Shown here: positions 9,541 to 41,157 of the stretch, in pieces | Position numbering within the stretch: position 1 is the stretch's first letter | How the letters are laid out: each line of letters opens with the position of its first letter | The notes under the pieces: model-generated | The model's input: only the letters and a program-made list of their open reading frames with translations | Database searches by the model: none | Told to the model about the DNA's origin: nothing | Origin: a bacterium BMS3Abin01 | Lineage (GTDB): Bacteria > Actinomycetota > Thermoleophilia > BMS3ABIN01 | DNA length: 59,514 bases | Direction: 5' to 3' | Assembly (NCBI GenBank): GCA_002897715.1 | Contig: BDUA01000011.1 | Coordinates: 1 to 59,514 of the forward strand | Program-made: the position numbers and the translations under genes

Positions 9541-9664
9541 TTTAGTTATTTACCACTCTCATTCATGACGTTCTTCCAAACATTTATATAATATTTACGC
9601 AGTTTTATCTGCACATCGGAACATATATCCTTTACTGACTATAATACTCGGTCAAAAAAATCTT

Positions 9665-11272: not shown

Positions 11273-11284
11273 CCGAAGCTGAAC

Positions 11285-14361: not shown

Positions 14362-14375
14362 AGGTTACTCATGGA

Positions 14376-16660: not shown

Positions 16661-17454
16661 TAAATATCCTCAGCAAACCTGGAGGCTTCCCTCTCAAAAA
16701 ACCAATACCCGCTGATAAAAATGACAACAGGTAAAAGGTAGGGAATCAAGGAAAACGGGAAAGACAGAACATCAAAGGCGGTACTCGTCTCATTGGAAAT
16801 CAGGAGATAGCGGCTGTCCTGAATTATTTGAGAGAGGGGACTCAACATGATGACACTTTGATATCTATCGGGTACAAAGCTTAGCGGGTAAAGGATCGGG
16901 GTGGCATAGAACAAGACCTGAATCGTTACCTCCCAGATATGAGCGATATCCCGGAAGCGAACGAAGAATGATGCAAGATAAAGTGAAACCCCGATTGTGA
17001 AAATGATGAATTCAATCAGAATCAGGATAAACAGAGGTGAAGCTGCCGTAAGAGAGACTTTTGAGAAAGCCATGAAAATGAAAAAAACCACCAGATTCAA
17101 AAGCAGGGTTATCAGTGCTGTCAGTGAGGCGGTGACCGTCAGGATGATCCTTGGAAAATACACTTTCCTGATTAGGTCTCCTTTGCCGACGATGGACGTC
17201 AGTGAAGTGATAGTCGCTTCAGTAAAAAAAGTCCACAGCACGATTCCCAAAAGGAGGTATACGGGATAGTTGGGAATTGAACCGCCGATTTTAAAGAATT
17301 TGGTAAAAACAACCAGCAGTACACCAAAAAACATCAACGGTTTGCCCAAAGACCACAAATACCCAAAGAAAGAAGCTTTATATTTCAATTTGAAATCAGT
17401 AAGTATCAGTTCCCTTACTAATCCAAAATAATTATATGAGATTGTTTTTTTCAT
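16660..17454 (-). CDS. wzm: Polysaccharide ABC transporter permease
   Basis: DFKLKYKASFFGYLWSL, LIRKVYFPR, FRDIAHIW, FYATPILYP; multiple TM helices. Confidence 0.92.
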   Translation of the reverse strand: MKKTISYNYFGLVRELILTDFKLKYKASFFGYLWSLGKPLMFFGVLLVVFTKFFKIGGSIPNYPVYLLLGIVLWTFFTEATITSLTSIVGKGDLIRKVYFPRIILTVTASLTALITLLLNLVVFFIFMAFSKVSLTAASPLFILILIEFIIFTIGVSLYLASFFVRFRDIAHIWEVTIQVLFYATPILYPLSFVPDRYQSVIMLSPLSQIIQDSRYLLISNETSTAFDVLSFPFSLIPYLLPVVIFISGYWFFEREASRFAEDI

Positions 17455-17746
17455 ATATTTTTCTAAGAAGCAGCCCTTGACCTGGTGATAGCGCTCCTGA
17501 AATTTCCAGCTAAAGAAGTAAATTCCTAGAGTAGAACCCTCGAAGGGATCCCAAAATCAATCATGGGCGACTAAGCAGGAATAGAGTTTATCACATTCAA
17601 TGGTACAGATTGGAAGCCGGGCCGGGGCTTTTGCAGGAAACATCGAGTTCAATCAGAACGGCTGTCAGCCGCGAGGACGAACACCGGTATGAGAGGCGCC
17701 AAGCGGTAAAACAGCCGGCTCTGTCGATGGCCGGCAGGCCTGGTCT

Positions 17747-20700
17747 TTATTCAGTCCTGCATCCCAGCAGCGCGTTGCCGCCCGGGCCCTGGTTGATGCC
17801 GTAAGCACACACGGTGTTGCTGCCGGCCTGGGCCCCGACGATTCCGCTGAAGCCGTGACTGTCTCCGTAATCCGGATAAGCGATACCCACGTCCGGGCGG
17901 TCACCGTCGGCGGCAAGCACGCCGCCCCAGCGGCCGTTCACATAGACATGGACGTCTATGGGGTCGCCGGTGTCCGGGTCGATGGCCCAGCCACCGACAT
18001 CGATCTGCCCCGATGAATCCACTGAAACCCCGTCGAGTGCTCCAAAAGGATTCACCTGAACGTTTACTGTCTTGCAACCCAACAGGACATTTTCCCCGGG
18101 GCCGTTGTTTATTCCATAGGCGCAAACCGTATTGCCGGCAGCATCGGTTGAGATGCTCCCGGAAAAACCGTGATTATCCCCGTAACCCGGTATTGCGGAT
18201 CCTACATCGGGACGGCTCCCGTCAGCGGCTATGGCCGTGGCCCACCGGCCATTCACGTATATATGGACATCGATCGGGTCACTGGTATCCGGATCGATAG
18301 CCCAACCGTCGATATCCAGCCGCCCGGGATCTCCCGCCGAGACCGCGTCAACATTGCCGAACGCCGGCGCCGTAGTGTCCAGCACCGTAAAGGAACCGTC
18401 CAGGGGGGTGGCGTTTCCCGCCTTGTCGGCTATGGAACCGCCGACGGTATAGTCACCGTCTGCGAGACCGGTCACCTGGCAGGTGACGTCAGCGGCGGTT
18501 ACCTCGCATCCGGAAATGGGGTTGTCATCGATAGTGACTACCACAGCATCAGTGTCGATGCCTGAATCTTCATCGCTGTAGCCGGCATTGATCGACAGGT
18601 TGCCGGTATGTACGATCCCGGTGGGATCCACGCCGGTCACTGAAGGCGTGGTCGGATCGACCACAAAGTTCCACTGGTAATCCGCGGTGAGATGGTTGCC
18701 GGCCTGGTCCGCTACACCGCTGGTTATGATCGCCTTGTAATCCCGCACCTCGCCCAGATCGTTAACCGGGTCGAGTGTGGCTGTTCGCGTTCCGCTGTCA
18801 TAAGAGACTACGGCGGGAACCTGTTGTCCATAGGGATCTGCCTGCCTGACCAGTCTGAAGCTGGAGCCATCGATGGTGTTGGCATCGATATCCTCCGAAA
18901 ATGTCACTTTAATGCTGGAATTCATGGCGACCGCCGTGTCGCCATCGACGGGCACGGTAGAGATCAACGCCGGCGGGACTACGTCGGTCGTCGGCACATA
19001 AGCGTAGGATGTCTGATAGTCGTCTATCGCCACCGGGACTTCGACCGAGTCATACGTGCTCCCGTGGTCGGTTATGCTGAACCTGGTAATCCGGCCGGTG
19101 TCCGACCCGGCGGCATCATAGACCTTGAGATACCACCGGTCTCCCCAGCTGGGCGGCAGATGGGACACGGCATCATCAATATCGACCGTTACATTCAGTC
19201 CGTTGGCCGAACCCCCCTGCCGGTTGGAGACAACCGTGGACCAGTCGGGGGACGAAGGATCGCCCACACCCAACGTCACCACCAGATCGCCCCGGTAAGA
19301 ATGATCGATCTCTATCCGGGCTGTGGTCTGGGAGGGCATACCGCTGCCGGTGATGCCGACCGCGGCGAAGCCGCTATCCACAGCGAGGACTTCGACGCTG
19401 GTGGCGCCGTAAAGGTCAGCCGCCGCCTGCACGCTGGCGTCCCTGGCGTCCGAGAACTGGGAGCTGGAGGTAAGGTAGTCGGTCAGTGCCCGGTACCATA
19501 TCTGTTCCATCTTGTCCTTACCGATCGCCGCCGCTACGTTATAGGCGGCCTTGTTGGGGATACCGCTATTGGCATGAACGCCGCCGTTGTCGCTGCTGGT
19601 GTTGACGTAACTGTTCATATGGGCGGGCTGGCCGAACCGGGACGGGTCCGACAAGCTCCGCAACGCGTCCCCGGGAGTCTGGGGAGAATAGACATCCTCG
19701 CCCATCAGCCAGTCGTCGCGGTCCACCATGGCGCCCATCACGTCGGAGTAGGATTCGTTCAAGGCGCCGGACTGGTAGGAATAGACCAGGCCGGCCGTGT
19801 ACTGGGTGACGCCATGAGTCATCTCATGAGCGACCACATCTAGCGCGTTACCTAGCGGTGAGAAAACATATCCGTCGCCGTCGCCGAAGGTTATCTGTGA
19901 ACCGTTCCAGAATGCGTTGTTATAGCCACTGCGGTAATGCACCGTGCTCTTGATGTCCATCCCCGACCCGTTGATGCTGTCACGGCCGAATGTGTTGTAG
20001 TAATAATCGTAAGTACGTCCGGTGTTGTAGTAGGCGGCGTTGACCACCGAATCGCCGGTCCAGGCGCTGCCTTCATTCATCATCAGGGTGCCGGGAATAC
20101 TTGTACCGTAATTGGCTGTATAGGTCTGGCGGTTCACCACATCCTGCAGGGCGTTATACGCCGCCGCCAACTCACCGCTGTGGGCGTCGATGAAATACAC
20201 CATGCGGAGCGGCGGGTCCTCTGATACCAGGGTTACCTTCCAGGTCAGCGCCACGGAAGTCCCTTCCTGCGGCAGTATCACCAGTTCGGGAGGCTCCCGG
20301 TCCGATAAAACCGCGCCCTGTCCCAGCTTCGCCTGAGCTGTTTCCACAGCCGCGGCCTTACCGACCTCAGGCTCCACGGAAAGATCGATGCCGGGAAGGT
20401 AGTAACCGTTTATAGCCGAGATCTTCCCGTCAGCCGTGTAATGAAAGGACAACTCGGAGCCGAAGACCGGGACCCCCTTGTAAACCTGCGCCATGCGCAG
20501 ATGGGTCATGCCCAGACCATCCCGCTCCATCCGCTGCAGAACCAGTTCTTCCGCCGGCCGGGAGATCTGATAAATATCGCTATTCTCATCCAGGAATGCA
20601 TAGGTGGCCTCGGGGAGGCCGGCTGCCGCTGGAGGCGTTACGGGTCCGGTAAGGAAAGCCGGAACCCCCGTGTCCTTATCCCACCTTATGGTCGCCTGCT

Positions 20701-27320: not shown

Positions 27321-28106
27321 ATGTCAGAGACGGTTATCCAAACCAATAATCTCACCAAAGAGTTTACCAAGCTCAGGGGGATATCGTCCCCCCGGAATTT
27401 TTTTGACAAGGTCTCCTTCACCGCGGTTAGGGGTATCAACCTCACCGTATCCCGAGGGGAGATCTTCGGACTGTTGGGTCCCAACGGCGCCGGCAAAACA
27501 ACGCTTACCAAGATGCTGTGCACCCTCATCCTTCCCAGCGACGGCAACGCCACTATCTGCGGCTACGACCTGGCCCGCCAGCAGGCGCAGGTGAAGGCAT
27601 CCATCGCCCTCATTTCCAGCGAGGAACGCAGTTTCTACTGGCGCCTTTCCGGCCGTCGGAACCTGGAGTTCTTCGCCGCCCTTTACGGGCTTTCCCGCAG
27701 ACGGACCCGGCAGAGAATACCCGAGGTGCTTGAGATAGTCGGCATGAGCGATGCCGCCGAACGACGTTTCCAGGAATATTCCACGGGGATGAAGCAGCGC
27801 ATGGCCCTGGCACGTGGCCTGCTGGCCGAACCCGATGTCTTTTTCATGGATGAGCCCACCAAGGGACTGGACCCGGTGGCCGTGAGGAACCTGCATGACT
27901 TCATCCGCAGCCAGCTGACCTCCCGGGGCAAGACCGTGATCCTGGCCACACACGACCTGGTGGAGGCTGAAGAGGTCTGCGACCGCGTCGGCATCATGCA
28001 GGGAGGCCGGATGAAGGCGGAGGGCAAGGTATCGGAGCTGGCCGGGGACGCCTCCCTGTCCGATTTCTTCCACAACCTGATAGCCGACCCGGAGAAAAAG
28101 TCGTGA
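27321..28106 (+). CDS. ABC-2 exporter ATP-binding protein
   Basis: GPNGAGKTT, YSTGMKQR, MDEPT. Confidence 0.9.
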   Translation: MSETVIQTNNLTKEFTKLRGISSPRNFFDKVSFTAVRGINLTVSRGEIFGLLGPNGAGKTTLTKMLCTLILPSDGNATICGYDLARQQAQVKASIALISSEERSFYWRLSGRRNLEFFAALYGLSRRRTRQRIPEVLEIVGMSDAAERRFQEYSTGMKQRMALARGLLAEPDVFFMDEPTKGLDPVAVRNLHDFIRSQLTSRGKTVILATHDLVEAEEVCDRVGIMQGGRMKAEGKVSELAGDASLSDFFHNLIADPEKKS

Positions 28107-28924: not shown

Positions 28925-29013
28925 GAAACCGTAAAGTTTTCGTAACACCCGGTTAAGTATCTGTTAAACGGACACAATGACTGTTTAACAGCCCCCCGTT
29001 CTGGAGTTACAAT
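28921..29013 (+). promoter_or_regulatory. Probable rpoN promoter preceded by ~11-bp-periodic (G/T)TAA repeats
   Basis: TTAACA(28985)-17 nt-TACAAT(29008). (G/T)TAA starts at 28921, 28931, 28942, 28953, 28964 and 28985. Confidence 0.5.
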
Positions 29014-29079
29014 AGAGAAAGCATAACCGGGAGCCGGCCCCGTGTCCCCCACACGACAGGCTCGTTACACATCAGCTAT

Positions 29080-30456
29080 ATGCCAAAAGCCCATATCAAG
29101 CAGAGCCCCATGCTTACCGTCCGGCAGAGGACTGTCCTGGCGCCCCAGCTTTATCAGGGGCTCAAGGTGCTACGCATGGGCGCCGCAGAGCTGCAGCAGC
29201 TCATCCAGAGCGAGCTGAACGAGAACCCGGTACTCGAACTCCCCGAGCCCGTCGACACTGGCTTAACAGCGGAATCCCAGCCCTACCGGGAGCTTTGGAA
29301 TGAATATGCCGGGGCTAACCGCATCCATGGCTCCAACAGACAGGGTGAGACGACGCCCCACCCCAACCCGGTAGAGCTGACTGCCAGCCCCACCACCCTG
29401 GCGGAGCATCTGGGCGTTCAACTCGAGCTTCAGGATCTTGCCGAGGCTGAGAACCGCATCGGCAGAGCGATCATCGGCAGCCTCGATGACAACGGCTACC
29501 TGCGCGATTCCATAGCGTCCCTGTCGGAGACTACCAGCGAACCTCCCGGCGAGGTAGAGAAGGTGCTGGCGGTCATCCAGGGTTTCGACCCCCCGGGCAT
29601 CGCCGCCAGGAGCCTGGAGGAATGCCTGCTCAACCAGATGGACCCGGGTGATGCCCAGGGCCTGCCGGGAAGGATCGTCAGACATTGCCTGCCGCAGCTG
29701 GGACGCGGCTCCATCGGCAGTATCGTCCGCATGTTGTCCGAGAACCGTTACCGCGTTGAATACGCGATAGCGCTGATACGCCGTCTCTGCCCTTCGCCCG
29801 GATCGCAGTTCGACACCAGCCCGCCCGCCGGTGCCGCCATCCCTGATGTCTTCATCAGGAAGTCAGGCGATAGCTGGGCTATACTGACCAATCGCGAGAT
29901 CACGCCCTCGCTGAGCATAAGCCGTGATTGTGAACGGCTGGTGGAAAAGCTGGCGGACGCCGATGCCAGGGAGTACATCCAGGCCAAAAGTGAACGGGCA
30001 CGCCAGCTTATCAAGGATGTGAACCAGCGCCGTCTCACGCTCACCCGGGTAGCGCGCGCCATCGCCAACGCCCAGGAGGAATTCTTCGAGAAGGGAAGGG
30101 ACAGCCTCAAGCCGATGAACCTGGATGACATCGCCCGTGTCCTGGACGTCAACCCTTCTACCGTCAGCCGCGCCATCCAGGGTAAATACATGAGCACCCC
30201 CTTCGGCATCTTCGAGTTCAAATTCTTCTTCTCTACCGGTTACGCTGTCGCCTCCGGACCGGACCTCTCGGCCACGGCGCTGAAGGAGCGGCTGAAGAAG
30301 ATGATCGCCGCCGAGGACGGCAGGCGCCCCCTGTCCGACCAGAAGCTGGCCGACGCGTTAAAAAGGGAGAGTATCAGTATCTCGCGGCGGACAGTGACCA
30401 AGTATCGTGAGGAGCTGGGCCTGCCGGCCTCCTGGCAGAGGAAGAGTTCCGCATGA
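29080..30456 (+). CDS. rpoN: RNA polymerase sigma-54 factor
   Basis: Region I LAPQLYQGLKVL...ELNENPVLE, LDDNGYL, HTH STVSRA, RpoN box SRRTVTKYREEL. Confidence 0.96.
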   Translation: MPKAHIKQSPMLTVRQRTVLAPQLYQGLKVLRMGAAELQQLIQSELNENPVLELPEPVDTGLTAESQPYRELWNEYAGANRIHGSNRQGETTPHPNPVELTASPTTLAEHLGVQLELQDLAEAENRIGRAIIGSLDDNGYLRDSIASLSETTSEPPGEVEKVLAVIQGFDPPGIAARSLEECLLNQMDPGDAQGLPGRIVRHCLPQLGRGSIGSIVRMLSENRYRVEYAIALIRRLCPSPGSQFDTSPPAGAAIPDVFIRKSGDSWAILTNREITPSLSISRDCERLVEKLADADAREYIQAKSERARQLIKDVNQRRLTLTRVARAIANAQEEFFEKGRDSLKPMNLDDIARVLDVNPSTVSRAIQGKYMSTPFGIFEFKFFFSTGYAVASGPDLSATALKERLKKMIAAEDGRRPLSDQKLADALKRESISISRRTVTKYREELGLPASWQRKSSA

Positions 30457-31988
30457 GCGATTCCACGCGGGAGAATACTGATAACCGCTTCCGGCAACCG
30501 CTGGCGGCGGTGACCCGTGGCCAGATCCGCGACATTATACTGATAGTCACCGTCACCGCCCTGATCACCTACTTCCATAACTGGCCGCCGCATATTGGTA
30601 TCATCCCTTCGGAGTCGCTGCATATCCTGCTGCGACGCCTGTATTACATACCGATAATCTACGCCGCCTTCCGTTTCGGCATCAAGGGCGGTCTGCTGAC
30701 TTCACTCACCATCACCGCCCTGTTCGCACCGCACGCGGCCAGGTCCATGGGCGGGCTGTTCAAGGGGGCGGCCGTCGATAACTTCTTCGACCTGCTCATC
30801 TACAACGTGGTAGCCATCACCACGGGCATGGTGGTCGACGACAAGCGCCGTCAGGCGCAGCGATACCAGGAAACGCTTAAACTGAACCGGGAGATAGAGG
30901 AGCGGGAAACGGCCCTGCGGCAGATAAAGGCTTATACTGACAGCATCCTGAGCAGTATCAGCAGCGGCGTCATCTCTCTGGACCGCCGGGGTAATATCGT
31001 CACCGCCAACCCGGAGGCGATGCGGATACTGGGACGGAAGGAGAGCGAGCTGGTGGGCTTCCCGCTGGAAAAAATATTCAGAAACCAGGAACGGCTGGTA
31101 CTGGCGGCGCGGCGCATTCTCAACGGAGAACAACAGCGCGCCACCATGGAGGCCGAGCTGGCCGGTGAAGGACAGGTGCTTACGGTCGCCATCCGTATCA
31201 CGCCACATCTGAGCCGGGGTGAAACCGTAGGTATTGTGATCACCATCGAGGATCTTACCGAGGTCAAGAACCTGACGGAACAACTTATGCGGGCGGATAA
31301 ACTTTCAGGTCTGGGTGAACTGGTGGCCGGCGTCGCCCACGAGGTACGCAACCCCCTGGGCGTCATCAGGGCCAGCGTCCAGATGATGGAAAAGGAGATG
31401 GAGACCGGTTGCAAGTCCTCGGAGCTGACCCACGTCATGTTACAGGAGATCGACCGGCTGGACGCGGTAGTGAAGGCTCTGCTGGATTTCGGCCGGCCCT
31501 CGAAGTCCCAGTTCGAACGGATCGACGTGCAGCAGTCGCTGGAAGAGGTAATCCTGCTTACCCGCCAGTTCGCCCTCCAGCAGCAAGTGGGGGTGAGTCG
31601 TAATTTCGCCGAGGACCTGCCGGCACTGTGGGCTGATGACGATCAATTGAAGCAGGTCTTCGTCAATCTGATATCCAATGCCATACAGGCCATGCCCGAC
31701 GGGGGGAGACTGAGCATCTCCGTGTACACGGAAGGTGGCTTCATCAAGATCTCCTTCGCCGACAGCGGCACCGGCATTTCCACGGAAACAAGGGAACGTA
31801 TCTTCGATCCATTCTTCACCACGCGTGCCGGTGGCAGCGGTCTGGGACTTTCCATCGTCCATCGTATCGTCGATGCCCATAACGGTTATATGCAGGTCGG
31901 GAGCAGGGTCGGTACCGGTAGTACCTTTACCGTCAGCCTGCCGCTGATAAAGAGAGGAGAACGACCCGAGGTGGAGATCAATGCCTGA
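30453..31988 (+). CDS. Membrane PAS-domain sensor histidine kinase
   Basis: TM region (HILLRRLYYIPII), PAS domain, H-box AHEVRNPL, N/G1/F/G2 boxes. Confidence 0.93.
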   Translation: MSDSTRENTDNRFRQPLAAVTRGQIRDIILIVTVTALITYFHNWPPHIGIIPSESLHILLRRLYYIPIIYAAFRFGIKGGLLTSLTITALFAPHAARSMGGLFKGAAVDNFFDLLIYNVVAITTGMVVDDKRRQAQRYQETLKLNREIEERETALRQIKAYTDSILSSISSGVISLDRRGNIVTANPEAMRILGRKESELVGFPLEKIFRNQERLVLAARRILNGEQQRATMEAELAGEGQVLTVAIRITPHLSRGETVGIVITIEDLTEVKNLTEQLMRADKLSGLGELVAGVAHEVRNPLGVIRASVQMMEKEMETGCKSSELTHVMLQEIDRLDAVVKALLDFGRPSKSQFERIDVQQSLEEVILLTRQFALQQQVGVSRNFAEDLPALWADDDQLKQVFVNLISNAIQAMPDGGRLSISVYTEGGFIKISFADSGTGISTETRERIFDPFFTTRAGGSGLGLSIVHRIVDAHNGYMQVGSRVGTGSTFTVSLPLIKRGERPEVEINA

Positions 31989-33324
31989 TACTATTCTTCT
32001 GGTAGATGATGAGGAAAACATGCGTTTCGTGGTGGCGCGGGCCCTTTCAAGCGACGGGTACGGTATCCGCGAAGCATCGTCCGGAAAGGAAGCTCTCATC
32101 CAGGTTGAAGCGGAATCGCCGGACCTGGTGATCCTCGACCAGCGCATGCAGGGAATGGATGGTATCCAGACCCTGACGGAGATCAAGCAGGATAACCCGG
32201 ATCTGCCGGTGATCATGCTCACCGCCCACGGTAACGTGGAGAACGCGGTTCAGGCGATGAAGGCCGGGGCCGTTGAATACCTCACCAAGCCCTTTGATAT
32301 CGAGGAGCTCAAGCTTGTCGTACGGAAGGCACTGCGGGTCAGCCGTCTGGTACGGCAGGTGGATTACCTGCGTAGCGAGCTGGACCGCGACTACGATACC
32401 GGCGGCATCATCGGCAACAGTCCCCAGATGCACGACGTCCTGGACACCGTCTCCCGCGTCGCTCCCTCGGACGCCACAGTAATCATCTACGGCGAGAGCG
32501 GGACGGGCAAGGAACTGATCGCAAAGGCCATCCACGAGAACAGTTCACGCCGGGACCGGGCCTTCATCCAGTTGAGTTGCGCCGCCCTGCCGGAGACGCT
32601 GCTGGAGAGCGAACTGTTCGGCTACGAGAAGGGAGCGTTTACCGGAGCCACGGGAGCCAAACCGGGGCGGTTCGAGTTGGCCGACGGCGGCAGCCTGTTC
32701 CTCGATGAGATCGGTGACATCACTCTGGCGGTCCAGGTGAAACTGTTGCGTGTGCTGGAGCAAAAAACATTCGAGCGGCTGGGCGGCTCCAAGACCGTCG
32801 ATGTCGACGTGAGGCTGATCGGCGCCACCAACCGTGACCTGCCGACGATGGTACGCGATGGAGAATTCCGCGAAGACCTGTTTTACCGCCTGAATGTCAT
32901 CCCCATCAACATGCCACCGCTACGGAACCGAAAAGACGACATCCGGCTGCTGGTGAACCACTTCATGAAACGCTACGCGCCGGACAAGGAGCTTTCGGAC
33001 AAAGCGCTGCGCCTGCTGGCCGAATACTCCTGGCCGGGAAACGTACGCGAGTTGCAGAATACTATCGAACGGGCGTCGATACTCTGCCGCAACCGGGAGA
33101 TCCGGGTCGATGACCTGCCGGAAGAGATAAGCCACAGCCGTCCTCTTTCCTGTGGCTCCTTCAAGCTGCCCCCGGACGGCATCGCCCTCGAACAGGTGGA
33201 GCAGGAGCTGATATCACAGGCGCTGGAGCGTACCGGAGGGAACAAGACACGCGCAGCGGAACTACTGGGCATAAGCAGACATACGCTGCTTTACCGTCTC
33301 GACAAGTTCGGAATCGGCAATTGA
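31981..33324 (+). CDS. Sigma-54-dependent response regulator (NtrC/AtoC family bEBP)
   Basis: Receiver domain, GESGTGKE, intact GAFTGA, FLDEIG, WPGNVREL, Fis-type HTH. Confidence 0.96.
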   Translation: MPDTILLVDDEENMRFVVARALSSDGYGIREASSGKEALIQVEAESPDLVILDQRMQGMDGIQTLTEIKQDNPDLPVIMLTAHGNVENAVQAMKAGAVEYLTKPFDIEELKLVVRKALRVSRLVRQVDYLRSELDRDYDTGGIIGNSPQMHDVLDTVSRVAPSDATVIIYGESGTGKELIAKAIHENSSRRDRAFIQLSCAALPETLLESELFGYEKGAFTGATGAKPGRFELADGGSLFLDEIGDITLAVQVKLLRVLEQKTFERLGGSKTVDVDVRLIGATNRDLPTMVRDGEFREDLFYRLNVIPINMPPLRNRKDDIRLLVNHFMKRYAPDKELSDKALRLLAEYSWPGNVRELQNTIERASILCRNREIRVDDLPEEISHSRPLSCGSFKLPPDGIALEQVEQELISQALERTGGNKTRAAELLGISRHTLLYRLDKFGIGN

Positions 33325-33424
33325 ACTTCTTGCATCAACTGAATGACAGTTGTATCCTGACAAATAGTCTTATATATATCATGTATCGTTTATCTCCCTC
33401 CGCAAAGCGGTCGAAAGAGAACTT

Positions 33425-34627
33425 ATGAAACGGCTCGGACTCCTTTACCTGGCAGCACAGAACCTCAGACGCAAACCCTTCAGAAGCTTTGTGACCATTG
33501 CCATCGTGGCGATCGCCGCCGGCACCCTGTTCTCGGCCACACTGCTGATCAGTAGTGTCAACCGCAGCCTCGAGGTCGGCATGGAACGGCTGGGCGCCGA
33601 TATCCTGGTGGTGCCGGAGGGTTCACAGGAATCCGGCGAGGCGGCCCTGATTACCGGAGTCCCCACCAGCTTTTACATGGAACGGTCGGTGGCCGATCAG
33701 GTTGCCGCAGTACAGGGGGTGGACCAGGTCTCTCCCCAGCTGTTCATCGAATCCCTTATCTCCTCCGCCTGTTGCACGGGCCACGTGCAACTGGTGGGTT
33801 ATGACCCGGATACGGACTTCGTTATAACGCCCTGGCTCGAGCAGAACGTCGACAAGCCTCTGGATCGTGATGATGTGGTCATCGGCTCGCTGATACTCGC
33901 CAATAAGGGTGAGACGGTGAAGTTCTACGGGCATGACTTCAATGTAGTAGGCATACTGGACGCCACCGGCATGGGCGCCGACGAGAGCGTGTTCATGACC
34001 CTGGATGCCGCCTACGCCATGGCGGACGAGTCGGCCCAAGACGCGGCCACGGCCCTTGAGCTGCAGCCCGGCCAGATCTCGTCGGTGCTGGTAAGGGTAG
34101 CGCCGGGGACCACCATCGAGCAGGTGGCGCAACGCATCAAGACCAGCGTACCGGGCACCCTGGCCATTACCGCCAACGAACTGAGCCGTTCAGTTACCGA
34201 CCGGCTCTCGGGTTTCCTCAAAGGCTTTATCGTGCTCGATATCATCGTCTGGATTATGGCCCTGCTTACCATCGCCGCCATCTTTTCCATGATCGTCAAT
34301 GAACGCCAGCGGGAGATCGGCCTGTTGAGAGCCATGGGCGGCAAACGTGGGTATATCTTCCGCCTGATGACTACCGAAGCGATACTGCTTACCGCCGCCG
34401 GCGGCCTGACAGGCGTCCTCCTCGGCGGCGCGGGAATGTTCATCTTCCGCGCAGTGATCACCGCCAGCCTGGGTATCCCCTACCTCTGGCCACCACTGTG
34501 GTTCTTCGCGTTACTGGTACTGGGCACACTGTTTCTCTCAGTGGTAAGCGGCGTGGTGGCGTCCCTTTATCCGGCGATAAGCTCCAGTCGCCTCGAACCC
34601 TATGCCGCCATACGAAAGGGAGAGTGA
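33425..34627 (+). CDS. FtsX/MacB-type ABC transporter permease
   Basis: NLRRKPFRS, large extracellular domain containing SACCTGH, ERQREIGLLRAMG. Confidence 0.9.
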   Translation: MKRLGLLYLAAQNLRRKPFRSFVTIAIVAIAAGTLFSATLLISSVNRSLEVGMERLGADILVVPEGSQESGEAALITGVPTSFYMERSVADQVAAVQGVDQVSPQLFIESLISSACCTGHVQLVGYDPDTDFVITPWLEQNVDKPLDRDDVVIGSLILANKGETVKFYGHDFNVVGILDATGMGADESVFMTLDAAYAMADESAQDAATALELQPGQISSVLVRVAPGTTIEQVAQRIKTSVPGTLAITANELSRSVTDRLSGFLKGFIVLDIIVWIMALLTIAAIFSMIVNERQREIGLLRAMGGKRGYIFRLMTTEAILLTAAGGLTGVLLGGAGMFIFRAVITASLGIPYLWPPLWFFALLVLGTLFLSVVSGVVASLYPAISSSRLEPYAAIRKGE

Positions 34628-34637
34628 CGGCAATACC

Positions 34638-35324
34638 ATGTCAGACAAAATAATTTCGCTAAAGGGTGTGAGCAAGACCTATAAGGTAGGCCCCAGCACG
34701 GTACGAGCCGTTGACAACGCCGTCCTGGAGATCGAGCGGGGGCGCATGGTGGCCATAGTCGGTCATTCCGGCAGCGGCAAAACTACGCTGCTCAGCCTGA
34801 TCGGCGGTCTTACCAAACCAACATCGGGAAACGTACTGTTGAACGGCACCGACATCTGGGCCATCTCGGATAACGAGCTGTCGGTACTGAGGAACAAGAT
34901 GATCGGCTTCTCCTTCCAGTTCGCCAGCCTCATCCCCACACTCAACGTCTACGATAACGTGAGATTGCCCTCCACCTTCGACGGAGCGCCTCCGGTCAGG
35001 GAGGACCGGGCCCAGGATCTGCTGGAAATGGTGGGGTTGGGGGATCGGGGCAATTCTTTTCCGGCCCACCTCTCAGGCGGTGAACAGCGGCGGGTGGCGC
35101 TGGCCCGTACCCTGATGAACGAGCCGCAACTCATCCTCGCCGACGAGCCCACCGGTGACCTGGACGAGGATACAGAGGGCGAGATCCTGGATATCCTCAG
35201 GAAGATCAACGCCGGAGGTGCTACTATAATACTCGTAACCCACTCGCGAGCGGTCGCTTCACAGGCGGAATATGAGCTGCGGATGGACAAGGGTCACCTC
35301 TCTGAGAAACCTGCTGAATTCTGA
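34638..35324 (+). CDS. LolD/MacB-type ABC ATP-binding protein
   Basis: GHSGSGKTT, LSGGEQRR, ADEPTGDLD. Start at ATG 34638. Confidence 0.92.
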   Translation: MSDKIISLKGVSKTYKVGPSTVRAVDNAVLEIERGRMVAIVGHSGSGKTTLLSLIGGLTKPTSGNVLLNGTDIWAISDNELSVLRNKMIGFSFQFASLIPTLNVYDNVRLPSTFDGAPPVREDRAQDLLEMVGLGDRGNSFPAHLSGGEQRRVALARTLMNEPQLILADEPTGDLDEDTEGEILDILRKINAGGATIILVTHSRAVASQAEYELRMDKGHLSEKPAEF

Positions 35325-35335
35325 AAGGGGTAGGA

Positions 35336-35653
35336 ATGAGACGCAACCTCACCTTCATCATTCTGACTTTGATGCTGTCAGCCTGGCTGCTGACCGCCGT
35401 CGGCTGCGGCGACGAACAGGGCTCCATCAACAAGGAAGTCCACGGACAGATCACCAACGGCATGACTATGGACGAAGTGGACGCGGTCGCCGGTCAGCCG
35501 GAGCGTTCTCACAGCATCGGCTCCGCTCAGAACCCCCAGATATTCTGGTATTACAACAAATCCGAAGGCGAAGGTTTCGTCCGGGTTGTATTCGAGGATG
35601 GCAAGGTGACCACCGTCTCCCCTTACGACGAGAGCATCACCCCCGAATCCTGA
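35336..35653 (+). CDS. Small lipoprotein, SmpA/OmlA(BamE)-like fold
   Basis: Lipobox AVGC; ITNGMTMDEVDAVAGQP...WYY...VVFEDGKV. Confidence 0.75.
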   Translation: MRRNLTFIILTLMLSAWLLTAVGCGDEQGSINKEVHGQITNGMTMDEVDAVAGQPERSHSIGSAQNPQIFWYYNKSEGEGFVRVVFEDGKVTTVSPYDESITPES

Positions 35654-35746
35654 CCTAAATAAAACCACCCGGCGCTGATCCCTCCCGGATACCGAGGTGC
35701 GGACAATATTATCAACGCTAATTATGACGTCCCGGCTTGGTCAGAG

Positions 35747-35783
35747 TGTAGCATATGGTACATCAAGAGTAGGATACGGCTCA
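35747..35783. promoter_or_regulatory. Tandem upstream activator sequences for a bEBP
   Basis: TGTAGCATATGGTACA (TGT-N10-ACA) at 35747 and related AGTAGGATACGGCTCA at 35768, 21 bp apart, about 165-200 bp before the predicted sigma-54 start. Confidence 0.6.
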
Positions 35784-35919
35784 ATGACAGCGACCCACCA
35801 TTGCCCTCAGTGGTATATATTACTCAGCTTAAACCGTCATTTCCCCTGATTGCAGGCTTCATTCAGGACAAAGGGCCTACAACCCGTATCATTCAACCTT
35901 TTTTAGCTTTTTCCCGAAC

Positions 35920-35936
35920 TTGGCAAGTTCTTTGCT
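35920..35936 (+). promoter_or_regulatory. Sigma-54 (-24/-12) promoter
   Basis: TTGGCAAGTTCTTTGCT: GG at 35922-23, exactly 10 nt, GC at 35934-35. Matches YTGGCACG-N4-TTGCW at all but one position; predicted +1 near 35947. Confidence 0.85.
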
Positions 35937-36016
35937 GTATATATATATGAAAAGCCTTGATCCCATACTAAAACCCTCTTTCTAACGGTTTGGGAAAGCT
36001 GGCTTTCCACTTTTCC

Positions 36017-36046
36017 GGGGCCTGCCTGTGACGGCAGGCGGGCCCC
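36017..36046 (+). other. Strong hairpin in the 5' leader of the PqqD-like gene
   Basis: GGGGCCTGCCTG-TGACGG-CAGGCGGGCCCC: 12-bp stem with one G-U pair, no U tract. Confidence 0.6.
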
Positions 36047-36095
36047 CGAAACAACCGCGGGGGCAACGGAACAGCCGCAAAGGAGAGAGTGCGTA

Positions 36096-36359
36096 ATGGA
36101 ATTAAGCGAGGAAACTGCTACCGATTTGTCCGGCAGCGGGCAGATGACCAGTGAAGTACACGACCTCATCATGCATAGCGCCATTGCGGAAAAGGTTTGG
36201 GAGTTGCTGGACCACACGCTTACACTGCCCGATATCGCCGCTGTGATCTCGTCCGAGTTCGGGCTTCCACGTGAACGCGCCCTGTCCGACACCCGGGAAC
36301 TCGTTGATATCTTCAGCAGGGCGGACTTCGTAACCGTCTTGCGCGCACCGCAACACTAG
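36096..36359 (+). CDS. PqqD-like / RiPP recognition element (RRE) protein
   Basis: 87 aa; IAEKVWELLD...TLPDIAAVISSEFGLPRERALSDTRELVDIF three-helix pattern typical of PqqD. AAGGAG RBS. Confidence 0.75.
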   Translation: MELSEETATDLSGSGQMTSEVHDLIMHSAIAEKVWELLDHTLTLPDIAAVISSEFGLPRERALSDTRELVDIFSRADFVTVLRAPQH

Positions 36360-36391
36360 AACCACAATTTTTTTCCCACAGCGGTTAATCA

Positions 36392-37435
36392 CTACCGCTT
36401 GCCGGCCGCGGCGCTGGCTACCCATCGCCTGACTGTTTCCATATCGGATCCCAGCCGGCCTGCTATCTCATTGCAATCCATACCCTTTTCGCTGAGCTCC
36501 CTGGCGCGTGCCTGCCGGTCTCGGTATGCCTTGCTGCGACAGGCGTTGGAACAGAAATAGCGGTTCGTGCGAGCCGTGTAATGATCGATTTCAAACCAGG
36601 TATCACACTGCCGGCAGCGGCGGTAATCCTTCTCCTGTGTTATGGACTGGGAGAGTTGAAGCCAGAGGGCACCAATCAGGTTGTTGGGTACGAAATAGAG
36701 GCTCCAGCCGTTCAGGTGCCGGTCATCCCACAGTATCCTGGGAGAGATGCGCCTCTCCAGGCACCGGTTGGCGATGGCCTGCACCGCCAGCAAGGCGGTC
36801 CCGGCCAGGTTGCCCGCCCGGTACATATTCAGGCTCTCCGGATGGCTGCGATACCATCTTAGCTCACCCGGATCCACTTTTGGCAGCAGCCGCGAGGCGA
36901 CGCCATTGGCGGAGATCTCTCCCGCAGCCATGTCTGCTTCCACCCACCGCATCAGCGGTGAAAGAAATGCGTCCAGTCCCCTGCCGTCCTCATCCTGGAC
37001 CATATCCCATATCCGTAAGGCTTTACGCATGGCGCGTATCTCATTCCGCCATGACTCCAGGGGCTCCATCCGCAGGTAAACAGGAGAACTGCCCGCGTGT
37101 GCCGTCTCACGCCCGAACCCCATCAGCCCGTACTCATCGGCAAAACCGATGATGTCTTCAGGCTCCATGCCGGTCTCAGCGAATGCCCGAAACAGACATT
37201 TTTGCTCAAGAAGCGGGTTATACTGCTTCATGTCATAGGAGCCGGGGCCCTCGGAGAGCTTGGCGGCGATCAGTCTCCCCGGCGCAGACCCCTCACCGCG
37301 GTTTCCGCTGTTCCCATTGTCGTCGATGCCCCCTGATGAATCTCCGGCCAACGCCGCATCAACCAGCGTGTAGCCGGCCTTATTCACAAACCAAATAAAG
37401 TCAAATATCTCTCCTGGCACAAAAAACCCCTCCAT
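36392..37435 (-). CDS. CGNR-type zinc-finger protein with a C-terminal HTH-like tail
   Basis: CRQCDTWF...RYFCSNACRSKAYRDR, then GMDCNEIAGRLGSDMETVRRW. Start uncertain (37435 or 37501). Confidence 0.7.
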   Translation of the reverse strand: MEGFFVPGEIFDFIWFVNKAGYTLVDAALAGDSSGGIDDNGNSGNRGEGSAPGRLIAAKLSEGPGSYDMKQYNPLLEQKCLFRAFAETGMEPEDIIGFADEYGLMGFGRETAHAGSSPVYLRMEPLESWRNEIRAMRKALRIWDMVQDEDGRGLDAFLSPLMRWVEADMAAGEISANGVASRLLPKVDPGELRWYRSHPESLNMYRAGNLAGTALLAVQAIANRCLERRISPRILWDDRHLNGWSLYFVPNNLIGALWLQLSQSITQEKDYRRCRQCDTWFEIDHYTARTNRYFCSNACRSKAYRDRQARARELSEKGMDCNEIAGRLGSDMETVRRWVASAAAGKR

Positions 37436-37794
37436 ATTCGATATCGTTACGGGAATTATATCGGAATACGTATTGAATGTCCATCGAAGTAGCGGATACA
37501 ATTATAATCGGTTAACTTGCATTTGTCTTCACAGGCAGGGGATAGGGGAATTGACAGGGGAAAGCCGGTCCTGACTTAGGAATCACCCGGTTTTTGCGAT
37601 ATAAACAGGGTGTTCTGCTTTTAATAGTCAGCTTCCTCCACCGGCAACGTAATAAGCCTCCATTTCTTCTCTCGAACCTCTCCCCCCACTCTAGCGAAGA
37701 CGCATTATCAAATTACGGGAAACGGGAGGTGGTGGCACTAACGCAGGGTGCAAGTCTAACCCTTAAGATACATTACTATTAGGAGGATGAAGGG

Positions 37795-40251
37795 ATGAAA
37801 GTTGCATTGAGCAACACTAAATGGCAACTGCTGCTACTGGCAACGCCGCTGGTACTGATCCTGGCGATAGCTATCGCCACCAGCGGCATGTCAGGCGCAG
37901 CTGATGCCGCGTACGGCGGTTACGGTTGCGGCGCCTATACGCCCTGCGACCAGGCTCCGCCCGCCTCTTACGGCCTCGGCAACGAGTTGCTGTATGTGGC
38001 CAACGGTGACGCCAGCGACGTACTGGTGATCGATGCCAATACCATGCGCAAGGTGGACACCATACCCGTGCCCGATGCCGACCCGGGCGGAGATGCCTGG
38101 GAGATCCACGGCATGATCCCGTCCCCTGACAGGAGCTCCATGTTCGCCATAGGCGCCCTGTCCGGAACGGCGGCCGACGTTACCATGTACGAGATCGATA
38201 CGGCCACCAAGAACGTAGTGCGCACTATCGGCCCCATGTACAGCTCCAACGTCGGTTATTGCGGCTTCGAGTACGACCGCAACGACGAGAACTCCAACCT
38301 GGTCTACGCCACCAACATGGGGACACCGTTACTCGGCCCCACCGGCAGCGTGGGCGGTTGGCAGGAAGTGGATATCTCCACCGGCACCGTGGGCAGGTTC
38401 ATACCTACGGACGCCAACGGCAACGGCGAGTCCAGCACCTGTGGCGTCGCCTGGGATGCCAGCGGCACTCACGGCTACGCCGGACTGATGTTCGACGCCC
38501 CGTCATCGGAGACCGAGATGGACTGGCCGGGCGCTACCACGATGAATTACAACGCCTCGTCCGGTACATCGGGCATCTCCTACCACCAGAGCACGGTGGA
38601 CAAGGAACGCGGCCTGCTGTTCCAGTCGGGCGGCAACGGTCACGTCCTTGATGTCTTCGACATCAGCGGCGGCAATCCGGTGCTGATCGGCACCATCGAC
38701 CTGGCGGCGCTTACCGGCGTCCCCTCGGCCGAACCTCATGGCCCGGAGATCTCCGCGGCCAACAGCAACGTCCTGTACGTCAATACGCGCCAGGTACCCG
38801 ATCCCAACCCATCGGGCGGTACAGTGCTGGCTATTGACGTCAGCGATATCAACGCTCCTGTACTGATCGGCGGCTACAGCGGCACCAATAAATCATCTTG
38901 CGGTGTCTTCGCCGACGCGGACAAGAGCCTGTACTACAGTCACGCAGATCCCAGCGGTACCGGTAGCGAGACCCTGCTGGTAGCTAACGGCAGCGACAGC
39001 GATGTGCTGGTAGCTGACGTCGCTTCCATGTCCTGGGTGGACAGCATCAATATCCCGGACGCCGACCCGGCCGGAAACGCCTGGGAGATACACGGCATGA
39101 TCCCGTCTCCGGACAGGACATCCGTCTACGCCGTAGGCGCCCTGTCCGGCACCTCGGCTGACGTGACCATGTATCAGGTCAACTCGGCCAACGACTCTGT
39201 CGTCGGCACTATCGGACCCATGTACGGCTCCAACGTCGGTTACTGCGGCATCGAGTACGACCGCAACGACGAGAGCTCCAACCTGGTCTACGCCACCAAC
39301 ATGGGGACGCCGTTACTCGGCCCCACCGACAGCGTGGGCGGTTGGCAGGAAGTGGATATCTCCTCCGGCACCGTGGGCAGGTTCATCAACACCGATGCCA
39401 ACGGCAACGGCGAATCCAGCACCTGTGGTGTCGCCTGGGATGCCAGCGGCACTCACGGCTACGCCGGACTGATGTTCGACGCCCCATCATCGGAGACCGA
39501 GATGGACTGGCCGGGCGCTACCACGATGAACTACAACGCCTCGTCCGGCACTCCGGGCATCTCCTACCACCAGAACACGGTGGCCAAGGAACGCGGCCTG
39601 CTGTTCCAGTCCGGTGGTACCGGTGGAGTCCTTGATGTCTTCGACATCAGCGGCGGCAACCCGGTGCTGATCGGCACCATCGACCTCGTCGCTCTCACCG
39701 GTGCGCCTTCTACCGAGCCTCATGGTCCGGAGATCTCGTCCATCGACGAGAACATCCTGTACGTCAATGTTCGCCAGGTACCCAGCCCCAACCCCTCCGG
39801 GGGATCACTGCTGGTTATCGACGTCAGCGACGTTACAGCTCCGGTGCTGCTTGGGACGATACAGGGCACCAACGAATCGTCCTGCGGCGTCTTCGCCATG
39901 AGCACAGCTTCATGGAACCCCGGCCAGCCCGCCCTGAGTCTCACCAGGGGCACGGTCTACTGGGCCTCCGTGGCTGACTACAACAACCGCATCCTGTCCG
40001 TCGACTACAGCATCGGCAACGCCGGACCGGACGCCAAGGACGTCACCATCGCCGGCACGGTCAACACCGGCGGCGTGACCTCGGTGAACACGCCCAGCCT
40101 GGCCGGCGACATCGCCGGCGGCGGCAGCGGCGCCTACATCGTCGAGTACTATGTGCCCGTCGGCGTAGTGGCGTTCAGCACCACCGTATACGCAACCGCT
40201 CAGAGCGGCGCCACCATCTACGACTACCCCGGTCCGTACCCCGGACCTTAA
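37795..40251 (+). CDS. Secreted protein with two tandem beta-propeller-like domains and a C-terminal beta-sandwich-like domain
   Basis: AGGAGG upstream, signal peptide, YVAN...VLVID and LYVN blade motifs, internal 328-aa duplication. Confidence 0.85.
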   Translation: MKVALSNTKWQLLLLATPLVLILAIAIATSGMSGAADAAYGGYGCGAYTPCDQAPPASYGLGNELLYVANGDASDVLVIDANTMRKVDTIPVPDADPGGDAWEIHGMIPSPDRSSMFAIGALSGTAADVTMYEIDTATKNVVRTIGPMYSSNVGYCGFEYDRNDENSNLVYATNMGTPLLGPTGSVGGWQEVDISTGTVGRFIPTDANGNGESSTCGVAWDASGTHGYAGLMFDAPSSETEMDWPGATTMNYNASSGTSGISYHQSTVDKERGLLFQSGGNGHVLDVFDISGGNPVLIGTIDLAALTGVPSAEPHGPEISAANSNVLYVNTRQVPDPNPSGGTVLAIDVSDINAPVLIGGYSGTNKSSCGVFADADKSLYYSHADPSGTGSETLLVANGSDSDVLVADVASMSWVDSINIPDADPAGNAWEIHGMIPSPDRTSVYAVGALSGTSADVTMYQVNSANDSVVGTIGPMYGSNVGYCGIEYDRNDESSNLVYATNMGTPLLGPTDSVGGWQEVDISSGTVGRFINTDANGNGESSTCGVAWDASGTHGYAGLMFDAPSSETEMDWPGATTMNYNASSGTPGISYHQNTVAKERGLLFQSGGTGGVLDVFDISGGNPVLIGTIDLVALTGAPSTEPHGPEISSIDENILYVNVRQVPSPNPSGGSLLVIDVSDVTAPVLLGTIQGTNESSCGVFAMSTASWNPGQPALSLTRGTVYWASVADYNNRILSVDYSIGNAGPDAKDVTIAGTVNTGGVTSVNTPSLAGDIAGGGSGAYIVEYYVPVGVVAFSTTVYATAQSGATIYDYPGPYPGP
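37980..39900 (+). repeat. Intragenic direct duplication, 984 bp period
   Basis: aacgacgag at 38281 and 39265; cores near-identical in DNA. Boundaries approximate. Confidence 0.92.
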
Positions 40252-40298
40252 GGGCGAGTCGGAGATAACGCGGCGAACTGACGTGAAAGGAGAACCAG

Positions 40299-40433
40299 AT
40301 GGCCTCTAAACAGAGTGACCACCGGGAGCCTTACGCCAAGCCTGAGCTGGTGAAGCACGATAACTTGAAGGATGTAACCTTCGAGTGCCCCAACTGGCAG
40401 TGCAGCGTAACGGTTCCAGCGCCGCCGGCCTAG
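40299..40433 (+). CDS. 44-aa RiPP precursor-like peptide MASKQSDHREPYAKPELVKHDNLKDVTFECPNWQCSVTVPAPPA
   Basis: Not in the ORF track. AAAGGAGA RBS just upstream of ATG; YxxPxL...T leader pattern; followed by a terminator hairpin. Confidence 0.82.
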   Translation: MASKQSDHREPYAKPELVKHDNLKDVTFECPNWQCSVTVPAPPA

Positions 40434-40466
40434 ACACAGCCTGCGGCAAGCGGTAAGGCTAACAGC

Positions 40467-40504
40467 CGGAGGGCGGCCCCCACGGGGGCCGCCCTCCGTC
40501 ATTT
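40467..40504 (+). terminator. Intrinsic terminator-like hairpin
   Basis: CGGAGGGCGGCCCC-CACG-GGGGCCGCCCTCCG: perfect 14-bp stem followed by TCATTT. Confidence 0.8.
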
Positions 40505-40713: not shown

Positions 40714-41157
40714 TTGTCTACAAAAAACAAAAAACAGGTTAACGAATATTTCATACAGAGAGTCGTCCTCTCACAAGGTCAGGTTATAGATCTGGTCTGC
40801 TTCGATGAAGATGAATGCGTCGAAAGCATAATTGAGGAAATCATGACTGAACTACAGAAGAAAAAGACAGAAATCCAGACCTGTCCCCTCTGTAAGTCAG
40901 AGCTGGTCTACCCCGTTGAACGGTGCCAGGTCAACGATATGGAGTGGAAAGTACTGTTGCTCTGTCCCAACTGTTCATGCAAGCGGGAAATGGTCGTCGA
41001 GCGCGAGACCGTTCGCGAACTTCTGAAGAGCGCCAGGGTGGGCCGTGAGTCCCTGATGAGAGAACTGGACAAAATGCAGAAGAGAAACATGGAAGAGGAA
41101 GTTGACAAGTTCATCTGCGCTCTCAACAAGGACCATATCCTTCCCATTGATTTCTAG
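40714..41157 (+). CDS. Zinc-ribbon hypothetical protein
   Basis: CPLC...ELVYPV...CPNC, C-terminal helix ending DHILPIDF. Confidence 0.75.
   Translation: MSTKNKKQVNEYFIQRVVLSQGQVIDLVCFDEDECVESIIEEIMTELQKKKTEIQTCPLCKSELVYPVERCQVNDMEWKVLLLCPNCSCKREMVVERETVRELLKSARVGRESLMRELDKMQKRNMEEEVDKFICALNKDHILPIDF

Follow-up and report, generated by a model that had tools for sequence, protein, structure and literature searches.

Introduction

In the described control systems of the NtrC family (AtoSC, ZraSR, NtrBC), a kinase is paired with an activator that has receiver (REC), AAA+ and Fis domains and a GAFTGA motif, and the controlled promoter shows the GG-N10-GC spacing with a palindromic enhancer upstream. 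The same arrangement, with the enhancer about 175 nt upstream, is present at positions 29080-40504 of the DNA described here. The window, i.e. the whole stretch of DNA that was analysed, is the entire 59.5-kb contig (C11) of the 1.5-Mb metagenome-assembled genome of bacterium BMS3Abin01 (G000), which is 86% complete. An original prediction had read these 11.4 kb as one new system, composed of a sigma-54 circuit, an FtsX-type ATP-binding cassette (ABC) transporter with a lipoprotein, a PqqD-like gene behind a -24/-12 promoter, a zinc-finger gene, and a propeller gene paired with a small peptide gene. The genes of the 11.4 kb were called from a list of open reading frames (ORFs) together with Pfam and NCBIfam scans, and all the predicted parts were found where they had been placed. 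On balance, we read the 11.4 kb as a composite of three separately evolving modules and not as one new system. These modules would be a sigma-54 regulon unit, an orphan truncated recognition element (RRE) for peptides that are synthesised by ribosomes and modified after translation (RiPPs) under its control, and a tail-domain/peptide cassette with a rare Cys/His propeller.

AtoS and AtoC were the best NCBIfam matches of the kinase and the activator, although the scores for AtoS, AtoC and ZraS/R all remained below the cut-offs. Unlike in AtoSC, ZraSR and NtrBC, rpoN itself is translationally coupled here to the kinase and the activator, and the targets are envelope and surface proteins. The host differs as well, since it is labelled Actinomycetota, which two comparative papers (PMC3162934, PMC12316311) describe as a phylum without sigma-54. 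The label of the host family is probable from the record names of homologues, which read Actinomycetota or Thermoleophilia. WhiB (PF02467) was not found in the 86% of the genome that is covered.

The Bce-type modules of Bacillota combine an intramembrane kinase with an FtsX-family ABC transporter and sense peptides. A possible likeness is that the kinase of the locus, which has no large outside domain, is encoded next to an FtsX-family ABC transporter. It differs from them by a 4-helix MacB-type permease with a separate ATPase, by an NtrC/sigma-54 instead of an OmpR regulator and by a lipoprotein gene within the block.

Quinohemoprotein amine dehydrogenase has a propeller as its beta subunit and a cross-linked gamma peptide. 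The operon of the propeller also encodes the radical SAM protein QhpD, the subtilisin QhpE and a dihaem alpha subunit, and it contains only one gene for the gamma peptide. A propeller gene beside a small Cys/Trp peptide, with maturases that are not adjacent, is also found here. In contrast to the dehydrogenase, the peptide (pep44) is multi-copy and follows a tail domain, and the propeller was modelled with six blades. The analogy to this enzyme, on which the original prediction had drawn, found nothing specific in its favour: Pfam scans of the window from 24 to 46 kb gave no radical SAM, subtilisin or haem-subunit gene, and the peptide is multi-copy and tied to the tail.

Lasso peptides have a core that begins with Gly, Ala, Ser or Cys and carries Asp or Glu at position 7-9, together with an Asn-synthase-like cyclase. 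[quoted passage not shown]

Results

Comparison across related genomes

The occurrence of the parts was compared in 41 genomes, which comprised G000 and 40 relatives, 23 of the same family and 17 from six other families of the class. Within the family, G000 excluded, rpoN and a match to the PqqD-like protein were each present in 22 of the 23 genomes, and the propeller protein and the peptide in all 23. The 17 genomes of the other families contained no rpoN, no propeller and no PqqD-like gene (0/17 each), and the peptide gave one weak match with an E value of 0.2. Since the compared genomes are kin, this co-distribution shows a lineage restriction and not a functional linkage.

The family shares a backbone of dus, an ABC-2 transporter and the genes rpoN-kinase-activator-FtsX-ABC-lipoprotein, which is continued further on by the gene for a 147-aa zinc-ribbon protein (zn147) and rho. 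When 19 genomes were examined, the backbone was contiguous in 11. In 4 others, contig ends interrupt it but what is present agrees with this order, and the remaining 4, all from genus g4, differ. The segment between the lipoprotein gene and zn147 was variable. In five genera (g1, g2, g3, g6, g8), represented by 7 genomes, it was filled by the PqqD-like and zinc-ribbon genes, and the propeller followed this pair in 5 of the 7 genomes (g1, g6, g8). In g2 and g3, the pair was found without the propeller and was followed by other genes, including one for a C_GCAxxG_C_C-type protein with its own sigma-54 motif. The genera g5, g7 and g9 have the kinase-activator-ABC-lipoprotein block without the PqqD-like gene or the propeller. 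There, the promoter precedes the gene for an exported protein of about 360 aa, then comes a surface protein of about 820 aa with immunoglobulin (Ig)-like domains, and a DUF4418 gene lies further on. The propeller-peptide pairs were far from rpoN in most genomes. The components of the presumed single system thus occur independently in relatives, which is the outcome that the original prediction had named as its refutation, and therefore they do not form one system. Proximity alone had overstated the unity of the locus, which is a lesson for genome mining.

The exported proteins of about 360 aa (L041, L043, L046, L047, L049, L052) belong to no family, and their C-terminus is always GPPPGWPxCCPWPPQ/R. 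At positions 12060-14500 of L043, which derives from genome G010, the lipoprotein gene is separated from the sigma-54 promoter by an inserted gene for 809 aa that runs on the opposite strand. From its translation, the product has a Cys-rich N-terminus that resembles the metal-binding domain of P-type ATPases.

The sigma-54 promoter and its regulon

A 442-nt intergenic region separates the lipoprotein gene from the PqqD-like gene and holds the following elements.

35747-35762, + strand: palindrome TGTAGCATATGGTACA of the form TGT-N10-ACA, a candidate enhancer that lies 174 nt upstream of the -24 element
35921-35936, + strand: sigma-54 promoter TGGCAAGTTCTTTGCT (-24 TGGCA, -12 TTGC), near-consensus, invariant columns in alignment A1
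35975-36051, + strand: conserved 5'-leader box ACCCTCTTTCTAACGGTTTGGGA with a GC-rich hairpin at 36012-36051 (alignment A1, inverted repeat I1)

By its sequence, the site at 35921 has the features of a sigma-54 promoter, namely the GG-N10-GC spacing, the TGGCA/TTGC context, an intergenic position, conservation and an upstream enhancer. The loose pattern TGGC-N8-TGC occurred in the window at chance level (12 found versus 11.6 expected), and the strict weighted -24/-12 match had 9 occurrences in the whole 1.5-Mb genome. Of the 14 related loci with a lipoprotein gene, 12 have the strict motif 200-350 nt behind this gene; the exceptions were G010, where it is located 4.3 kb further on, and G014, where none was found. 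In alignment A1, which includes 12 genomes from 6 genera, TTGGCA and TTGC were nearly the only invariant columns. Eight of the 12 loci carry the palindrome TGT-N10-ACA at a distance of 155-250 nt upstream of the -24 element, and another 2 carry related palindromes. TGT-N10-ACA is also the spacing of NifA-type sites. With the motif in 12/14 and the palindrome in 8/12 loci, the sigma-54 circuit and the enhancer-type promoter in front of the PqqD-like gene proved to be real and conserved, as had been predicted.

The genome was then scanned for the palindrome with a weight matrix, and a sigma-54 motif was sought 60-330 nt downstream of each site. The matrix found 6 sites, and only two of them had a sigma-54 motif downstream, C11:35747/35921 and C28:19303/19495. 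The site on contig C28 (C28:19303-21100; locus L077 4304-6102) precedes the genes for a membrane protein of the DUF4418 type, which has an insert rich in Met, Asp and Gly, and for a C_GCAxxG_C_C protein that has a twin-arginine translocation (TAT) signal and ends in CxxCH. Among the DUF4418 genes of related loci, 5 of 8 copies had a sigma-54 motif upstream, and 4 of these 5 also had the palindrome. Radical SAM genes had been expected from such a genome-wide scan. It gave the DUF4418/C_GCAxxG_C_C operon and no radical SAM gene, and its yield is envelope and redox proteins, not radical SAM maturases.

Within the 5' leader, the box CCCTCTTTCTAACGGTYTGGGA is conserved from g1 to g7, and the sequence of the GC-rich hairpin that follows it varies between genera. 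Rfam gave no match in the whole window at the gathering thresholds and nothing credible in 35600-36150. RNAalifold, applied to the 5' leader of 10 loci, gave no supported consensus structure.

Two other candidate promoters were rejected. The sigma-54-like motif TGGCACGTGGCCTGCT at 27808-27823 is part of the coding sequence of the ABC ATPase there, 10 related loci have it at the equivalent place of the gene, and its simplest reading is conserved coding sequence. At 37733, TGGCAC has the wrong spacing for a sigma-54 promoter.

The signalling block

The genes upstream of the promoter are listed here.

29080-30456, + strand: rpoN (sigma-54), with PF00309 (AID), PF04963 (CBD) and PF04552 (DBD), all above cut-off
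30453-31988, + strand: membrane PAS histidine kinase, with HisKA, HATPase_c and PAS (Pfam)
31981-33324, + strand: NtrC-type enhancer-binding response regulator, with PF00072 (REC), PF00158 AAA+ (241 bits) and PF02954 Fis helix-turn-helix (HTH)
33425-34627, + strand: MacB_PCD/FtsX permease, with PF12704 (57 bits) and PF02687 (50 bits)
34602-35324, + strand: ABC ATPase, with PF00005 (ABC_tran, 119 bits)
35336-35653, + strand: 105-aa lipoprotein-like protein, with a signal peptide and the lipobox Cys of ...LTAVGC

The rpoN product scored 388 bits with TIGR02395 (cut-off 277), and its three domains and the RpoN box RRTVTKYR at residue 436 are those of a sigma-54 factor. It is the single match in G000. 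A search of the genome contigs with RpoN found one close relative in L054, which was 93% identical; the others were distant (31-35%) and came from other phyla.

The start of the kinase gene overlaps the rpoN stop by 4 nt, and the activator gene overlaps the kinase gene by 8 nt. About four hydrophobic segments were counted within the first 130 residues of the kinase, which has no large outside domain. The activator carries Walker A (GESGTGK) at 171 and GAFTGA at 218, and with its receiver, AAA+ and Fis HTH domains it is an NtrC-type enhancer-binding protein. It is one of two strong PF00158 matches, i.e. of two real enhancer-binding proteins in the genome. The ABC pair had its best NCBIfam matches to LolD, MacB and FtsE, every equivalog being below cut-off. 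A four-helix permease with the MacB core and the FtsX domain and a separate ATPase identify it as a transporter of the MacB/FtsX type. The lipoprotein showed weak BamE/OsmE matches, and its position after the ABC genes is conserved.

No sigma-54 motif was found upstream of rpoN in 28925-29079. The 155-nt gap before rpoN contains a palindrome, CTGTTAAAC-N13-GTTTAACAG, at 28961-28991. A second pair of a kinase and an enhancer-binding protein is encoded in G000 at C49:22000-30300 (locus L062). This pair has its own sigma-54 motif at C49:26951, which precedes the genes for a protein of 151 aa, a membrane protein of 309 aa, a TIGR02186-like protein and a universal stress protein. At C49:30195, 2 kb away, a copy of pep44 was located.

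The PqqD-like protein RRE2 and its partner p369

The sigma-54 promoter is followed by two convergent genes.

36096-36359, + strand: RRE2, 87-aa PqqD-like protein (Pfam PqqD 29.5 bits, cut-off 23.4)
36392-37501, - strand: p369, zinc-ribbon gene (369 aa), with an N-terminal domain without family, followed by a zinc ribbon of the pattern CxxC...CxxxC and a tail that resembles an HTH

The Pfam match of RRE2 spans only the profile positions 12-66 of 67, and no NCBIfam PqqD model matched the protein. RRE2 was alignable with the full-length PqqD of contig C14 (RRE1) over residues 28-86 only, with 29% identity. A complete PqqD-type recognition element is a winged helix of three strands and three helices that binds a leader peptide; RRE2 retains the last strand and the helices of this fold and lacks the first strands. 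Its orthologues were found in 7 genomes of 5 genera. When RRE2 was co-folded with pep44, the score was 0.00 and the mark 0.32, which gives no answer and speaks neither for nor against binding.

p369 is always paired with RRE2. It had no Pfam match and belongs to a widespread unnamed hypothetical family (Atlas). In structure, this family weakly resembles the CGNR zinc-finger proteins (TM 0.49), and 14% of the proteins in its nearest cluster carry HTH_23. Its start is probably Met28 (37420), because the homologue alignments and the Atlas record begin there and a sigma-70-like promoter at 37483-37455 fits this start.

The double propeller

37795-40251, + strand: secreted 818-aa propeller protein, with a signal/anchor, two six-bladed propellers of about 330 aa and an Ig-like tail (about residues 700-818)

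The two units of about 330 aa are 81% identical and form an internal repeat, and the tail has about 120 aa. No Pfam match was obtained for the 818-aa protein. The propeller was modelled with a pLDDT of 84.5, and the strand pattern gave six blades per unit. The unit is rare. Seven relatives were found in an index of 5.8 billion proteins, a search of 1.84 billion representatives gave 21 with E <= 0.001, and a metagenome scan with a single unit found no relative. Invariant or nearly so within the unit are H61, C112, C172, H220, H271 and C325 (Cys3His3), each at the start of the innermost strand and one per blade. In propeller enzymes, this start lines the central channel. The model therefore suggests that the Cys/His ring is a metal or redox site. 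PF11617, presumably the MopE-type copper motif, was present on one homologue of the propeller. The propeller gene has no sigma-54 motif of its own.

The best Foldseek match of the propeller was the YVTN propeller of a Methanosarcina surface-layer protein (PDB 1L0Q), with an E value of 1e-13, a TM of 0.56 and 19% identity. Both are secreted surface proteins in which a propeller is followed by an Ig-like domain. The YVTN repeat TIGR02276 touches residues 63-92 of the 818-aa protein with 25.4 bits, below the cut-off of 27.85. YVTN propellers are seven-bladed, whereas the 818-aa protein was modelled with six blades, and the Cys/His ring is specific to its rare family, unlike 1L0Q.

The peptide pep44, the tail domain and the C14 enzymes

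40299-40433, + strand: pep44, 44-aa peptide gene, with a good ribosome-binding site (AAGGAG) and followed by a GC-rich hairpin

The peptide pep44 has a leader of the lasso/LPP type (YAKPEL...T-F) and an invariant C-terminal part, ECPNWQCSVTVPPPP, and is conserved over its whole length (alignment A6). Residues E29, C30, W33 and C35 are nearly invariant, and one leader is shared by all copies. All 23 family genomes have 4-12 copies each, and the 39 database homologues are all unnamed.

Metagenome loci were collected by a scan with the peptide alignment, and 62 of them had enough upstream sequence to be assessed. A tail domain was encoded on the same strand at most 400 nt upstream of pep44 in 51 of these 62, a propeller in 9. 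In five near-complete relatives, pep44 was preceded by the tail domain in 30 of 50 cases, and 30 of 150 tail-domain matches were followed by the peptide. Three of the copies in G000 follow a tail domain, three do not and two are at contig ends. Where the match contained a propeller, pep44 followed in 22 of 31 cases, with at least 3 of the 9 misses cut by contig ends. The predicted pairing of propeller and peptide is thus conserved (22/31), but the constant partner of pep44 is the tail domain (51/62), with or without the propeller (9/62). The tail domain was modelled as a seven-strand Ig-like sandwich (pLDDT 85) with generic matches only. Its passengers are diverse and include NHL repeats and proteins with PF00082, PF01522 and PF09459, which we take to be subtilase, polysaccharide deacetylase and EB_dh, respectively.

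The maturase had been predicted to be encoded elsewhere. Candidates were indeed present on contig C14, where the gene for the full-length PqqD lies between those for an HprK-like kinase and a lasso-type B2 peptidase, and DUF2079 and a methyltransferase follow; radical SAM genes were not found at the regulon sites. The B2 peptidase was above its NCBIfam cut-off, and the HprK-like kinase and the RRE were below theirs.

In its spacing, the pep44 leader agrees with that of lasso peptides, Y-x2-P-x-L-x3-(G->D)-x5-T-x. We rejected pep44 as a classical lasso peptide, since the putative core after the conserved T27-F28 reads ECPNWQCSV... and has no acidic residue at 7-9. A lasso cyclase was not found in the 86%-complete genome: the two strong PF00733 genes are AsnB (399 and 535 bits versus 267), and with the lasso cyclase model they scored 271 and 225, short of its cut-off of 525. 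With the LPP motif reported in PMC13381572, the leader shares Y..P.[LV][VL].H, which is a partial match only. The set of kinase, RRE (B1) and B2 peptidase is common to the lasso/LPP pathways and C14, although the LPP clusters use an SpI-type peptidase and C14 has the B2 type. Unlike in the lasso/LPP pathways, the pep44 core is invariant, and the precursor genes are scattered behind tail-domain genes, outside the enzyme cluster.

Discussion

In the composite of three modules that we favour, the membrane PAS kinase would phosphorylate the NtrC-type activator, possibly with the MacB-type ABC transporter and the lipoprotein as a co-sensor or an output. The activator would bind TGT-N10-ACA about 175 nt upstream and open the sigma-54 promoter at 35921, and the same architecture would drive the DUF4418/C_GCAxxG_C_C envelope operon on C28. 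The cargo of the promoter would vary by genus, with the truncated PqqD-like RRE2 here and Ig-like surface proteins elsewhere. p369 may be a zinc-ribbon/HTH regulator that is convergent with RRE2. The propeller, tail and pep44 would be one of many dispersed cassettes of a secreted Ig-tail protein and pep44 that landed here in three genera. Probably, the C14 set of kinase, RRE1 and B2 peptidase deals with the peptide, which itself probably acts with the tail domain and not as a cofactor of the propeller.

Several points weigh against this composite. The steps of the first module are read from the anatomy and conservation of genes and sites. Because RRE2 lacks the N-terminal strands of PqqD, its binding of a leader is uncertain. 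The Cys/His positions were taken from the secondary structure of the model and not from its coordinates. Cassettes of tail and peptide also lie near rpoN in G012, G014 and G017, which could exceed chance proximity. Propeller-type tail proteins precede pep44 more often than tail domains in general do (22/31 versus 30/150), and the peptide might have a role that is specific to the propeller. With 86% of G000 covered, further regulon sites or a cyclase could have been missed.

The locus could still be one signal-induced system in which an exported, cross-linked Cys/Trp peptide serves the propeller as a cofactor or subunit, with the ABC transporter as the exporter and the PqqD-like protein as the maturase adaptor. 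We regard this as very improbable. The conserved gene pair of propeller and peptide, the nearly invariant E29, C30, W33 and C35, the Cys/His ring and a PqqD-like gene under the sigma-54 promoter 1.4 kb upstream would all suit it. The peptide, however, tracks the tail whatever the passenger (51/62 versus 9/62 for the propeller), and three of its eight copies in G000 have no tail gene upstream. Moreover, the ABC block is conserved without RRE2 or the propeller in g5, g7 and g9, RRE2 occurs without the propeller in g2 and g3, the transporter is of the MacB/FtsX type, and neither the stretch nor the second regulon site contains a radical SAM, subtilisin or haem-subunit gene. A regulatory coupling of the modules is rather unlikely, yet easier to accept. 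Here, the sigma-54-induced RRE2 would bind the shared YxxPxL leader and divert pep44 from the C14 enzymes or deliver it to them, so that an envelope signal gates the maturation of the peptide for the whole set of tail-domain proteins. The strand and the helices that RRE2 has kept can be aligned with the full-length RRE of C14, all homologues of RRE2 that could be detected in the genome are of the PqqD type, and one leader is common to every pep44 copy. Paired RREs that discriminate between similar leaders are described by Popov et al. (2026, PMC13381572). Against the coupling, RRE2 is present in 5 of 9 genera and the peptide in all 9, the first part of the PqqD fold is missing, and RRE2 is tied to p369 and not to the peptide gene. 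RRE2 might link the sigma-54 signal to peptide maturation. The full chain, in which the envelope signal read by sigma-54 induces a minimal RRE that gates the maturation of an invariant peptide, which then docks on Ig-like tails, appears improbable. If it were true, pep44 would be a regulated key that acts in trans for the display or activation of lineage-specific surface proteins, including the Cys3His3 propeller.

A regulon for metal or envelope-redox stress is unlikely as well, and slightly more so than the coupling by RRE2. The kinase would sense metal stress, e.g. copper, and the ABC pair, the lipoprotein, the Met-rich DUF4418, the C_GCAxxG_C_C protein and the Cys/His propeller would handle metal at the surface, with the peptide and RRE2 as bystanders. 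The C28 site, with its Met/Asp/Gly-rich DUF4418 and a TAT-signal redox-type protein ending in CxxCH, points in this direction, as do the Cys3His3 ring and PF11617 on one propeller homologue, whose name as a copper motif is presumed. By Pfam, however, the kinase has no known metal-sensing domain, the first gene downstream of the promoter differs by genus and here has no relation to metals, the propeller gene lacks its own sigma-54 motif, and the sole CopC match was not significant (E 0.025).

With one sigma factor, two activators and two sites of palindrome and promoter, the genome presents a compact sigma-54 regulon in a lineage labelled Actinomycetota. The gene under the promoter changes from genus to genus, and in this way nature has provided an experiment on the rewiring of a regulon. 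Two protein features of the locus are undescribed, namely the rare six-bladed propeller, in which each blade has one conserved Cys or His, and the tail domain that is consistently followed by an invariant peptide with a lasso/LPP leader. The pairing of tail domain and peptide suggests a role of RiPP-type peptides beyond that of antibiotics.

Neighbouring genes

The 84-aa ORF at 40248-40502 (- strand) was rejected as spurious and is not a gene. The GC content is 0.47-0.54 at positions 8000-18000 of the window and 0.59-0.64 elsewhere on the contig, and this region may be an acquired island. The 11.4 kb are flanked by housekeeping genes, with dus and the ABC-2 transporter upstream and zn147 and rho downstream. 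The 147-aa protein zn147 (40714-41157) has two CxxC pairs, belongs to no family, is 72-97% identical across genera and always adjoins rho; it looks like the product of a conserved housekeeping gene.

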